Assembly: GCF_000025925.1 (NCBI RefSeq)
Contig: NC_014033.1
Coordinates: 600,001-632,000, forward strand
Source: Xylanibacter ruminicola 23
GTDB taxonomy: Bacteria; Bacteroidota; Bacteroidia; Bacteroidales; Bacteroidaceae
Length of the DNA: 32,000 nt
Direction of reading: 5' to 3'
A program made the translations under genes and the position numbers. Numbering within the stretch: the first letter of the stretch is position 1; the number at the start of each line of letters is the position of its first letter. Shown piece after piece: positions 12,980 through 15,655 of this stretch. The notes beneath the pieces are model-generated. The model saw only the letters and a list, made by a program, of their open reading frames with translations, was not told the DNA's origin and did no database searches.

Positions 12980-13642
12980 ATGAAAAAGAATCTTTTATGG
13001 ATGCTGGCCGCCATCTTTGTTTGCGGCCTTACAGTGACAACGCTGAGCGCCTGCTCGAGTGATGACGACAAAAACGACAAGGCCGATGCGACTGTCGAGA
13101 AAGAGATTATGTACGCTGTACAGATATCCGACGATGTGCTTAAAGTGGCCAATGTAGAAGTGAACTATGTGGACCAGACGGGCGCCAAGAAGAAGGAAGC
13201 ACTTTCTTCGGCACAATGGACAAAGTCACAGAAGTTGAATAACACGTCACCACTTGCCCAGGGAATCTGGGTCAAGATCACTCCGAAAACAAATGTCGCC
13301 TCCGGCACTTACCAGCTGAAGGTTACAACAGGTGTGGCTTGCAAGGCAACCCTTGCAAACGGGAATAGTATCATGGATTTTTCGGGCAACGACCCTCAAA
13401 AAGCACCTGTCACGGCGCAGACTGCAGAAGAAATCGCCGACTGGTGTTCCAAGAGCCCTACTGGTGGTCTGCTTGTAGATCCATCGGGTTATTGCAAACA
13501 GCAGCATGTGGACTTTGGAGGAAATAATGACGACATGCCTGAAAATGTAGCAGCTCTTTGTGGTCTCTGTGAACTCTTTTCGTGGTTGTGGGTGTTTGAT
13601 GATATGCCAGAAGATTTCTGTGATAAACCTTGTGGTAGATAA
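12980..13642 (+). CDS. Lipoprotein paralog 1 (type A body, 38-aa Cys-rich tail with 4 Cys)
   Basis: Signal and lipobox MKKNLLWMLAAIFVCGLTVTTLSAC followed by SSDDDK. The body is near-identical to the 14978 gene up to HVDFGGN (Asn codon 13523-13525). The tail is unique. Confidence 0.8.
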   Translation: MKKNLLWMLAAIFVCGLTVTTLSACSSDDDKNDKADATVEKEIMYAVQISDDVLKVANVEVNYVDQTGAKKKEALSSAQWTKSQKLNNTSPLAQGIWVKITPKTNVASGTYQLKVTTGVACKATLANGNSIMDFSGNDPQKAPVTAQTAEEIADWCSKSPTGGLLVDPSGYCKQQHVDFGGNNDDMPENVAALCGLCELFSWLWVFDDMPEDFCDKPCGR

Positions 13643-13654
13643 AAATAATAGACA

Positions 13655-14278
13655 ATGAAAAAGAACATTTTATGGATGCTAGCCGCCATCCTTATTTGCG
13701 GCCTGACAGTGACAACAATGAGCGCCTGCTCGAGTGATGATGATGACAAGACCGAGGGTAAGACCGAGGTGACGATGATGTATATAGTGAAGGTTACTGA
13801 CGACGTGCTGAAGGTGGCCGACGTGGAAGTGAACTACATCGACCAGACGGGCGCAAAGAAGAAAGAGAAACTGGGCACTACCGAGTGGAAGAAGACCTTC
13901 TCCACCAATACCCTGCCACTCACCGAGGGCGTTTGGGCAAAGATGACACCAAAGACAAACATCGGTACAGGCAGCTACTCGTTGCAGGTGACCACGGCAG
14001 CAGGCTACCAGGCCAAGCTGGCCAATGGCAAGACCGTTGCCGACGGCTACGGCAGCGACCCGGAGGCAAAGCCCACTACCGCGCAGACTGCCGGAGAGAT
14101 CGCCGACTGGTGCAGCCAGAGTCCTACGATAGGCATCGCTATCGACCAGACAGGTTATAGCAAGCAGCAGCATGTAGATTTCGGAGGAAATTTCTTAGGT
14201 GGATTCTTTGACAAAAAAGATGCTTGCGAATGGTTGATGGAATTATTTGGTGCAGATAAAGATTATTGCTATGAATAA
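13655..14278 (+). CDS. Lipoprotein paralog 2 (type B body, 28-aa tail with 2 Cys)
   Basis: It has the same signal peptide. The body is near-identical to the 14328 gene up to HVDFGGN (Asn codon 14189-14191). The tail is unique. Confidence 0.8.
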   Translation: MKKNILWMLAAILICGLTVTTMSACSSDDDDKTEGKTEVTMMYIVKVTDDVLKVADVEVNYIDQTGAKKKEKLGTTEWKKTFSTNTLPLTEGVWAKMTPKTNIGTGSYSLQVTTAAGYQAKLANGKTVADGYGSDPEAKPTTAQTAGEIADWCSQSPTIGIAIDQTGYSKQQHVDFGGNFLGGFFDKKDACEWLMELFGADKDYCYE

Positions 14279-14327
14279 TATACTCCTAAGATATGATAAA
14301 TGACACAAAAGTTATAGTAACATTACA

Positions 14328-14948
14328 ATGAAAAAGAACATTTTATGGATACTAGCCGCCATCCTTATTTGCGGCCTGACAGTGACAACGCTGAGCGCCT
14401 GCTCAAGTGATGATGATGACAAGACCGAGGGTAAGACCGAGGTGACGATGATGTATATAGTGAAGGTTACTGACGACGTGCTGAAGGTGGCCGACGTGGA
14501 AGTGAACTACATCGACCAGACGGGCGCAAAGAAGAAAGAGAAACTGGGCACTACCGAGTGGAAGAAGACCTTCTCTACCAATACCCTGCCAGTCACCGAG
14601 GGCGTTTGGGCAAAGATGACACCCAAGACAAACATCGGTACAGGCAGCTATTCGTTGCAGGTGACCACGGCAGCAGGCTATCAGGCTAAGCTGGCCAGTG
14701 GCAAGACCATCGCCGACGGCTACGGCAGCGACCCGGAGGCAAAGCCCACTACCGCGCAGACTGCCGGAGAGATCGCCGACTGGTGCAGCCAGAGTCCTAC
14801 GATAGGCATCGCTATCGACCAGACAGGTTATAGCAAGCAGCAGCATGTAGATTTCGGAGGGAATCGTGATGCTGTAATTGATATGCATGCAGTTTGTATC
14901 TGGTTTTTTGGATTGTTTGGCGAACCTCCCTCATTTTGCGATAAATGA
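14328..14948 (+). CDS. Lipoprotein paralog 3 (type B body, 27-aa tail with 2 Cys)
   Basis: As for paralog 2, with the Asn codon at 14862-14864. The tail is unique. Confidence 0.8.
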   Translation: MKKNILWILAAILICGLTVTTLSACSSDDDDKTEGKTEVTMMYIVKVTDDVLKVADVEVNYIDQTGAKKKEKLGTTEWKKTFSTNTLPVTEGVWAKMTPKTNIGTGSYSLQVTTAAGYQAKLASGKTIADGYGSDPEAKPTTAQTAGEIADWCSQSPTIGIAIDQTGYSKQQHVDFGGNRDAVIDMHAVCIWFFGLFGEPPSFCDK

Positions 14949-14977
14949 CACAAAAGTTATATTATAATTATTATTAA

Positions 14978-15655
14978 ATGAAAAAGAACATTTTATGGAT
15001 GTTGACAGGCTTGGCCGCCATCCTTATTTGCGGCCTTACAGTGACAACGCTGAGCGCCTGCTCGAGTGATGACGACAAAAACGACAAGGCCGATGCGACT
15101 GTCGAGAAAGAGATTATGTACGCTGTACAGATATCCGACGATGTGCTTAAAGTGGCCAATGTAGAAGTGAACTATGTGGACCAGACGGGCGCCAAGAAGA
15201 AGGAGGCACTTTCTTCGACACAGTGGAAAAAGTCACAGAAGTTGAATAACACGTCGCCATTTGCCCAGGGAATCTGGGTCAAGATCACTCCGAAAACAAA
15301 TGTCGCCTCCGGCACTTACCAGCTGAAGGTTACAACAGGTGTGGCTTGCAAGGCAACCCTTGCAAACGGGAATACCATCATGGATTTCTCGGGCAACGAC
15401 CCAGAAGCAGCGCCTGTCACGGCGCAGACTGCAGAAGAAATCGCCGACTGGTGTTCCAAGAGCCCTACTGGCGGTCTGCTTGTAGATCCATCGGGTTATT
15501 GCAAACAGCAGCATGTGGACTTTGGAGGAAATGCCAGGGATACAGATTTAGCTATTGTTGATTGTTATGCCTGTAGATTCTTTGAATATATATTTGGTGG
15601 TGATATTTCTTACTGTGAGGAACTTTGTAAAGACTGTTTTTTTTGTAATTTATAA
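14978..15655 (+). CDS. Lipoprotein paralog 4 (type A body, 40-aa tail with 6 Cys)
   Basis: As for paralog 1, with a 5-residue insertion in the signal peptide (MLTGLAAIL). The Asn codon is at 15530-15532. The tail is unique. Confidence 0.8.
   Translation: MKKNILWMLTGLAAILICGLTVTTLSACSSDDDKNDKADATVEKEIMYAVQISDDVLKVANVEVNYVDQTGAKKKEALSSTQWKKSQKLNNTSPFAQGIWVKITPKTNVASGTYQLKVTTGVACKATLANGNTIMDFSGNDPEAAPVTAQTAEEIADWCSKSPTGGLLVDPSGYCKQQHVDFGGNARDTDLAIVDCYACRFFEYIFGGDISYCEELCKDCFFCNL

Follow-up and report, generated by a model that had tools for sequence, protein, structure and literature searches.

Tandem lipoprotein genes of Xylanibacter ruminicola 23 as candidate carriers of variable peptides matured by a legumain-type protease

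Introduction

Four tandem lipoprotein genes of Xylanibacter ruminicola 23 share a conserved body that gives way at a single Asn codon to short, cysteine-bearing tails, which raises the question of what this residue marks and what becomes of the sequence behind it. The genes are located in the window, the whole 32,000-nucleotide (nt) stretch of DNA that was analyzed (NC_014033.1, positions 600,001 to 632,000, assembly GCF_000025925.1). A first-pass annotation compiled from the letters alone had likened the array to polymorphic toxins and bacteriocin precursors. The reading favored here, tentatively and with a probability of roughly 0.45, is that of a surface peptide-maturation cassette which would release acidic, disulfide-containing peptides that are most likely antagonistic. 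The junction Asn gains a likely meaning because a peptidase C13 (legumain-type) lipoprotein is encoded directly upstream of the precursors and a thioredoxin-fold oxidoreductase is encoded nearby, neighbors that the annotation missed. The arrangement hints at a route, not described so far, by which variable peptides could be produced and set free.

Results

The four open reading frames (ORFs) have the sizes that the first-pass annotation assigned to them (Table 1) and are separated by spacers of 12, 49 and 29 nt. Its A-B-B-A order of body types also was borne out. The bodies of genes 1 and 4 are 96.3% identical in nucleotide and 95.1% in amino acid (aa) sequence, those of genes 2 and 3 are 97.4% and 97.2% identical, and the A and B types, estimated by eye at about 60%, share 63-67% of amino acids. 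Repeats detected by self-blastn (13652-14191 with 14325-14864 for genes 2 and 3; 12966-13525 with 14964-15532 for genes 1 and 4) stop in both pairs at the last base of the Asn codon, where the breakpoint had been placed, and identity in 30-nt bins drops across this codon from 29-30 matches to 7-11. The tails had been described as unrelated, a description that does not hold: those of genes 2, 3 and 4 are alike in all three pairs (at most 1 in 2000 shuffles reaches the score; p ≤0.0005), and the gene 1 tail bears a weaker resemblance to the others (shuffle p 0.01-0.17). Judged from their sequences, the window tails are distant homologs in which an acidic spacer is followed, usually, by a C-x13-C pattern around a predicted amphipathic helix. 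The lipobox of the precursors is followed by C-SSDDD, and the consensus of the Bacteroides fragilis surface export signal is given as SDDDD in passages of PMC5080379. From the lipobox and this signal, the precursors are predicted to be surface lipoproteins.

Relatives of the precursors derive, where titles were given, from rumen Xylanibacter, Prevotella and other Bacteroidales. Their distribution is patchy: full-length matches turned up in two out of 301 family genomes and, above E 1e-38, in four of the 401 genus genomes, along with hundreds of metagenomic proteins. The homolog lists comprise the best 120 of 438, the best 120 of 432 and the best 150 of 482 matches. Among 314 unique proteins, 293 were parsed; the other 21 are 12 proteins that possess the Asn, eight distant tail-less relatives and one frameshifted sequence. 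The junction Asn is present in all 293 parsed precursors (FGGN in 290, FGRN in two and FGEN in one), whereas the residue that follows takes 18 different values and the preceding Gly differs in three proteins. After the exclusion of five tails of at least 60 aa from a total of 200, 195 unique short tails are left, which group at ~50% identity into 44 classes. Thus, the prediction that tails would vary between homologs behind a fixed break was upheld: homologs possess no single conserved tail, and identity breakpoints do not scatter. Distinct tail classes are attached to bodies that are at least 95% identical in 771 of 1514 pairs. The C-x13-C spacing recurs in 102 of 120 two-Cys tails, with hydrophobic periodicity and, in 93 of these 102, a Gly. 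The even number of Cys noted in the window genes is not a rule, as 165 of the 195 tails have even counts and 30 have odd counts. Orphan tails, which the annotation had proposed to seek, were found without a body behind precursor genes in L116 (1399-1464) and L117 (4546-4671), 95% identical to tail classes; these are the two clear cases in 98 loci searched. The search also turned up weak positions elsewhere in the genome, outside the two loci.

Some bodies instead bear C-terminal cargo of 170-195 aa. The same body with large cargo after the Asn motif was observed in P0184, P0262, P0122, L162, L163, L168, L175, L177 and L178; the cargo is unnamed in P0184 and P0262, and that of P0122 has an Lcl_C match just under the cut-off. 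To judge from these genes, the carrier can accept folded domains in place of a peptide. Sister bodies that terminate in WG(G/D)N followed by a conserved acidic tail of 21-25 aa that lacks Cys (L035 14592-15236, L076-L078, L136, L137, L164, L221 and L222) are possibly the ancestral substrate. They are situated directly behind secreted leucine-rich repeat or LamG proteins of 2,100-2,800 aa, often before a C13 pair, and we take these giant neighbors to be exported by the type IX secretion system.

A C13 gene accompanies the precursors in 18 of the 20 loci that have 2.5 kb on both sides, the window and a second locus of the same genome included, and in 48 of all 94 precursor loci, most of which are short contigs. 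Among 13 loci from GTDB, 11 possess C13 and 10 the 352-aa-type partner lipoprotein; in L045, the sole one of the 13 with 10-kb flanks but no protease, the precursor is broken. The oxidoreductase is found in 9 of the 20 precursor loci versus none of 40 loci picked by C13 alone. The partner, presumably a BMP-like binding protein, adjoins C13 in 37 of these 40 other loci. The second locus of X. ruminicola 23 consists of partner, protease, precursor, oxidoreductase and second precursor, and each precursor has a new tail after the same motif.

The 799-aa protein matches Pfam Peptidase_C13 (PF01650) with E 8.2e-41 (140.7 bits against a cut-off of 22.8), and its N-terminal region matches Peripla_BP_6 below the cut-off (E 0.002). 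Its closest solved structures are legumain (E 2.7e-27), glycosylphosphatidylinositol (GPI) transamidase (2.8e-18) and plant asparaginyl endopeptidases (AEPs), and peptide asparaginyl ligases also are among the PDB matches. Residues H649 and C700 align with the legumain His/Cys dyad. The legumain Asn pocket is formed by Arg44, His45, Ser216 and Asp231, as described in passages of PMC4357240, and these S1 residues are all matched by R549, H550, S727 and D742. The complete set is conserved in 29 of 29 precursor-linked C13 enzymes; Asp231 on its own is present in these 29 versus 11 of 38 others, three of the 11 being those of L076-L078. All 32 C13 enzymes that have an Asn-tail gene as a neighbor group in a single clade (support 1.0) of a tree built from 67 catalytic domains, and no Asn-tail gene was evident in the 10-20 kb retrieved around each of the 35 C13s outside it. 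Most members of the clade were retrieved via the precursor, and those of L076-L078 were found via the protease alone. The 40 C13 loci represent one or two per genome, with G179, G181 and G150 left out, and L108 and L114 are missing from the tree. A predicted complex of the protease with precursor 2 (score 0.00, mark 0.32) bears neither way on their interaction.

Related C13 modules lie beside MACPF lipoproteins in 7 of the 40 loci (L090, L099, L101, L102, L105, L107 and L108), where the partner and C13 pair ends operons of one to five BACON/MACPF lipoproteins. In L079, L087, L093, L095, L097, L098, L100, L104 and L106, an unnamed lipoprotein of 650-790 aa, usually with another of ~310 aa, is next to the pair; the larger protein has no Pfam, NCBIfam or named Atlas match. 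Separately, a tail class in P0116 and L133 resembles the protease segment around Asp742 (12726-12770; score 52, reached by 4 of 200 shuffles and 0 of 150 unrelated ORFs), a likeness that may reflect chance, a shared helix cap or mimicry.

The body is part of a family of Bacteroidales lipoproteins that is large (482 representatives) and has no name. Family libraries provide no name for the precursors: in Pfam the N-terminal 60 residues weakly match DUF4972, NCBIfam gives a signal-region match below the cut-off, and Atlas gives unnamed clusters. A model of precursor 2 based on 129 alignment rows (mean predicted local distance difference test score, pLDDT, 88.2; predicted template modeling score, pTM, 0.80) supersedes a first model from 77 rows (mean pLDDT 67.8; residues 164-185 uncertain). 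The body is predicted as a beta-sandwich (residues 38-171, pLDDT 94-98) and the tail as a separate helix-loop-helix (pLDDT 90-95), joined by a linker after Asn179 that is the least certain part of the mature protein (pLDDT 77); most family members fold without a tail. With Foldseek, neither model had a match at E 0.001, and a wide structural search recovered two Bacteroidales proteins of unknown function (Z 5.8-7.1), the better being 2lrg of Bacteroides vulgatus (Z 7.1, root-mean-square deviation 2.8, 104 residues aligned). The B. fragilis toxin prodomain and type V pilin folds, which were considered as candidates, are not among the listed structural matches, and the listing cannot exclude them.

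The invariant Asn is positioned three residues after the last aromatic residue of the body. Among 84 distant relatives, 67 end before the Asn column, all six with an extension of at least 8 aa possess the Asn behind varied residues, and three of the other 11 have it, counts that may be biased by alignment toward the invariant column. In L216 and L217 the VDF strand is lost and the Asn is retained. This conservation is the pattern of a putative P1 site, the residue that precedes a cleaved bond. A further residue, Cys153 in the body of gene 2 (14111-14113 region), is found in every one of 77 close relatives and could pair with an odd tail Cys or be buried.

The tails evolve differently from the bodies. 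In spanning trees of close pairs, the ratio of amino-acid-changing to silent differences (pN/pS) was 1.07-1.93 in tails versus 0.20-0.31 in bodies (counts differ, p 7e-20); positive selection on the tails is suggested, not proven. Tail Cys codons took one of 102 substitutions though they occupy 92 of 1131 positions (p 0.002). The tails are AT-rich, with a third-position GC content of 0.37 versus 0.65, and the value was lower in 120 of 120 genes. Each tail class moves together with its own 3' spacer, and precursors share 5' ends with neighboring genes; because of this, tail shuffling and the 22-nt remnant behind gene 2 (Table 1) can be explained by ordinary homologous recombination within tandem arrays, and a dedicated recombinase would be unneeded. 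The remnant occurs exactly twice in the 3.6-Mb genome, as first observed. It had been read as the sign of a newly inserted tail, but is instead an inherited scar, because it also follows the gene 2-type tail in L122, exactly, and in L117 with one change. In P0125 a body is fused to a C-terminal C13 piece, and this fusion, like the C13 remnant in the window, attests to recombination of precursor with protease genes.

A direct repeat of 2.7 kb (5394-8092 and 19438-22136; 99.2% identical) that holds an alpha-L-arabinofuranosidase gene brackets the whole cassette together with a helix-turn-helix (HTH) and HipA-like gene pair (17554-19348), a probable toxin-antitoxin module. Recombination between the repeat copies could excise or amplify the bracketed cassette. 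A 34-nt near-repeat occurs at 8744-8777 and 19372-19404. The AT-rich region 25130-31300, with an HTH gene and ORFs of 311, 329 and 985 aa that have no Pfam match, is perhaps a defense island. In 4 of 23 listed runs, namely three rumen RNA libraries of separate studies and one run of unknown type, contigs cover 26-29 of 30 bins across 8900-16200, coverage which without a silent control is not proof of transcription. Low-complexity repeats in the protease signal region (10550-10645) draw many unrelated contigs in all four runs.

Table 1. Genes and remnants of the cassette, in window positions.
Feature	Position	Strand	Remarks
Thioredoxin-fold CxxC (TlpA/ResA-like) predicted lipoprotein	8941..9498	+	185 aa; Pfam AhpC-TSA E 2.9e-09; NCBIfam ResA/TlpA-like below cut-off; candidate tail disulfide catalyst
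Partner lipoprotein of protease	9491..10549	+	352 aa; no Pfam or NCBIfam match; PDB 4pev membrane lipoprotein at no better than E 0.25
C13 lipoprotein with periplasmic-binding-protein-like region	10539..12938	+	799 aa; C-terminal legumain-type peptidase C13 domain; R549, H550, H649, C700, S727, D742
Precursor gene 1, body type A	12980..13642	+	220 aa; Asn codon 13523-13525; tail 13526-13642, 38 aa, 4 Cys
Precursor gene 2, body type B	13655..14278	+	207 aa; Asn codon 14189-14191; tail 14192-14278, 28 aa, 2 Cys; structure modeled
22-nt remnant of gene 3 end and 3' flank	14295..14316	+	Identical to 14940-14961; recombination scar inherited with gene 2-type tail
Precursor gene 3, body type B	14328..14948	+	206 aa; Asn codon 14862-14864; tail 14865-14948, 27 aa, 2 Cys
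Precursor gene 4, body type A	14978..15655	+	225 aa; Asn codon 15530-15532; tail 15533-15655, 40 aa, 6 Cys
Remnant of second C13 gene, internally deleted	15914..16108	+	Two pieces, 85-89% nt identical to intact gene (tblastn, self-blastn)
302-aa lipoprotein	16128..17036	+	5' end precursor-like; found too in at least one related locus (L144)

Discussion

In the proposed maturation pathway, the precursor would be exported as a lipoprotein and, given its lipobox and SSDDD signal, sent to the cell surface, where the ~150-aa beta-sandwich body would serve as a conserved carrier that ends at the invariant Asn. The CxxC lipoprotein would form or correct the tail disulfides, and the co-encoded C13 lipoprotein would cut after the Asn to free an acidic peptide of 25-45 aa with a disulfide-closed amphipathic helix. 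This cut, taken alone, is probable. Selection would act on the peptide, which would most likely be an antagonist of narrow spectrum with a binding target on the surface of competing Bacteroidales; this is the weakest step of the scheme. Homologous recombination in tandem arrays, between near-identical bodies and between 5' ends that genes have in common, would reshuffle the repertoire, with the tail and its 3' spacer as the moving unit. Antagonism is favored because alleles are multiple, the tails diverge by amino-acid changes, sister modules keep company with MACPF lipoproteins, and Bacteroidales protoxins activated by clan-CD proteases, as described in part of PMC11901371, provide a precedent. 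In a broader form, to which we give even odds, this would be a bacterial legumain system: an Asn-specific C13 enzyme and an oxidoreductase would mature at least 44 classes of positively selected acidic disulfide peptides from surface carriers in rumen Bacteroidales, as a counterpart of plant AEP biosynthesis and as one branch of a broader C13 module by which MACPF and further lipoprotein effectors would likewise be activated across Prevotellaceae.

Several observations weigh against release of an antagonistic peptide. Bacteriocins are typically cationic, and 187 of the 195 tails are negatively charged (mean -4.8). No cognate immunity gene that could follow each precursor fits into the spacers of the array, and in related arrays the precursors adjoin each other or the oxidoreductase directly. 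A further Asn lies within 129 of the 195 tails, where a promiscuous enzyme could cut. Tail acidity, missing immunity genes and internal Asn residues each weaken the case for antagonism. The excess of tail pN/pS over 1 is significant solely with transition bias (p 0.002-0.009 at kappa 4, 0.2-0.4 at kappa 1; kappa is estimated at ~4.9). The divergent precursor loci L216, L217 and L218 have no adjacent C13, L216 and L218 being the exceptions among the 20; C13 is elsewhere in genome G588, and no match was found in G535 and G680, which are 70-71% complete. The association of clade and precursor is one evolutionary event, not many. C13 genes occur in 41 of 301 family genomes versus two for the precursors, and because of this far wider spread the module has other clients. 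All six MACPF-linked enzymes of the tree have Asn231 and so differ in their pocket, and the position of legumain Asp147 is Gly in all 67 C13 domains, which is presumably a feature shared with GPI8. In the model, the confidently predicted tail may dock on the body, and an Asn at a domain exit could be a turn or capping residue.

These last points would also suit a tail that is never cut and is displayed as a variable, disulfide-stabilized surface epitope or ligand for adhesion, kin contact or decoy of phage or predators, with the Asn as a structural cap at the domain exit. High model confidence fits packing of the tail on the body, the hydrophobic pattern and Gly are maintained in tails, the junction falls where tail-less relatives naturally end, C13 is not adjacent in three loci, and any exposed epitope would diversify in this way. 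Yet the Asn is invariant amid varying neighbors and tracks the presence of an extension, the precursors are tightly linked to a clade of C13 enzymes whose Asn pocket is intact, and confidence is lowest in the linker directly after the Asn, so that uncut display is unlikely, if worth keeping in view. The same processing could alternatively yield a peptide that serves as a signal or as a tag of identity and is perceived at the surface, with the 352-aa partner and the binding-protein-like region of the protease as possible receptors. Fusion of such a region to the protease and the obligate partner are in keeping with this idea, under which immunity genes are unnecessary and acidic peptides no obstacle, and the short Cys-free acidic tails on sister bodies (L035, L076-L078 and L222) look non-toxic. 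The two candidate receptors, however, have not multiplied with the tails, a single pair serving as many as four of them in the window, and are found in many loci that lack such peptides, and no sensor kinase or regulator was noticed among the listed recurring neighbors; a signaling role is rather doubtful.

The C13 enzyme might instead be a transpeptidase, GPI8-like or akin to plant ligases, for which the tail is a leaving group and which ligates the lipid-anchored body to, for example, a giant secreted protein. The structural matches to GPI transamidase and asparaginyl ligases, the invariant Gly in place of Asp147, and the position of WG(G/D)N bodies between giant secreted proteins and C13 pairs point in this direction. 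The legumain score is nine orders of magnitude ahead of that for GPI8, and a leaving group needs no conserved disulfides, linked oxidoreductase, tandem alleles or Lcl_C-like cargo, all of which makes ligation improbable. Unconstrained read-through or drift, or removal of tails at Gly-Gly by a C39 transporter as in double-glycine bacteriocins, was suggested by the AT-richness of the tails, by a pN/pS near 1 without transition correction and by two full C39 matches in the genome. This explanation is largely refuted and very improbable: the Cys and helix pattern is preserved and tail classes persist across samples, the C39 genes are more than 220 kb away, a lipoprotein signal and folded 150-aa body replace a 15-aa leader, and Gly-Gly varies when Asn does not.

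The first-pass comparison with known systems therefore stands in part. A conserved carrier with a swappable module is supported by the exchange of tails between near-identical bodies, the fixed break, the orphan tails and the larger cargo, but the polymorphic toxin label does not hold in the absence of cognate immunity genes, and export is where the double-glycine bacteriocin route breaks down. Like the polymorphic toxins treated in passages of PMC3482391, the array has a conserved N-terminal carrier, a motif-delimited variable C-terminus, orphan C-terminal pieces and occasional large cargo; unlike them, it possesses no cognate immunity genes, its ~30-aa modules are mutually homologous, several complete genes stand in tandem, and the modules are at most putative toxins. 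Closer in operation are the C11-activated protoxins Fab1, BcpT, CDCL and BSAP with fragipain or DpnB, as portrayed in parts of PMC11901371, PMC12853789 and PMC8406203, in which the N-terminal part of a surface or secreted Bacteroidales precursor is removed by a surface clan-CD cysteine protease to leave a C-terminal presumed effector. Those proteases are C11 enzymes specific for Arg/Lys that release domains of 28-50 kDa, whereas here a co-encoded C13 enzyme with predicted Asn specificity would release a putative 25-45-aa disulfide peptide encoded by tandem hypervariable alleles without an immunity gene. Three C11 matches are located elsewhere in the genome and none in either locus, and the junction residue is Asn, not Arg/Lys.

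Bacteroidetocins, according to portions of PMC6671954, similarly are short Cys-containing Bacteroidales peptides with Gly-Gly near the junction and a thiol oxidoreductase gene in the cluster. Their leaders of 15-16 aa are cut after GG by an ATP-binding cassette (ABC) transporter/peptidase and a transmembrane protein gene is present, whereas the precursors described here have a lipoprotein signal, a folded carrier of ~150 aa before GG where double-glycine bacteriocins have a leader of 15-24 aa, an invariant Asn after it and acidic cores. No C39 peptidase ABC transporter is encoded in either locus, the genome matches being those at C1:843474 and C1:1322169-1323829 alone. The plant disulfide peptides processed by legumain/AEP, cyclotides and their kin, likewise combine a C13 enzyme that has an Asn pocket with a conserved pro-region and a hypervariable Cys-rich core. 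They mature in the vacuole rather than at a bacterial surface; in the present precursors the Asn precedes the core, so that simple release is expected and not cyclization, and the enzyme has a binding-protein-like N-terminal region and no legumain C-terminal prodomain. By analogy, the cassette would work like C11-activated protoxins, bacteroidetocin clusters and plant AEP maturation without being a member of any of these groups.

No passage on legumain or C13 peptidases was found in the parts seen of a review of leader proteases of RiPPs, peptides made on the ribosome and modified after translation (PMC10885120), a Bacteroidales survey of such peptides (PMC10352776), a review of Bacteroidales warfare, the polymorphic toxin survey (PMC3482391) or the Hungate1000 bacteriocin paper (PMC13289728). 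A search outside subscription journals and supplements found no paper on the natural substrate of a bacterial legumain-type enzyme, and these loci might appear in the mining tables of PMC13289728 and PMC10352776. The cassette is coherent and real, and apparently undescribed; protease-matured peptide precursors are known as a kind, and the carrier, export route and protease family are apparently new. The prediction is sharp, as it concerns one bond, one catalytic Cys and short peptides that can be synthesized. If correct, it would provide a natural substrate for a bacterial legumain-type enzyme and a new C13 clade as candidate protease or ligase, and would place an Asn-specific route beside the known Arg-specific surface activation of Bacteroidales effectors. 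Abundant rumen Prevotellaceae would then possess a large family of variable peptides that would escape mining based on double-glycine motifs, leaders or modifying enzymes.

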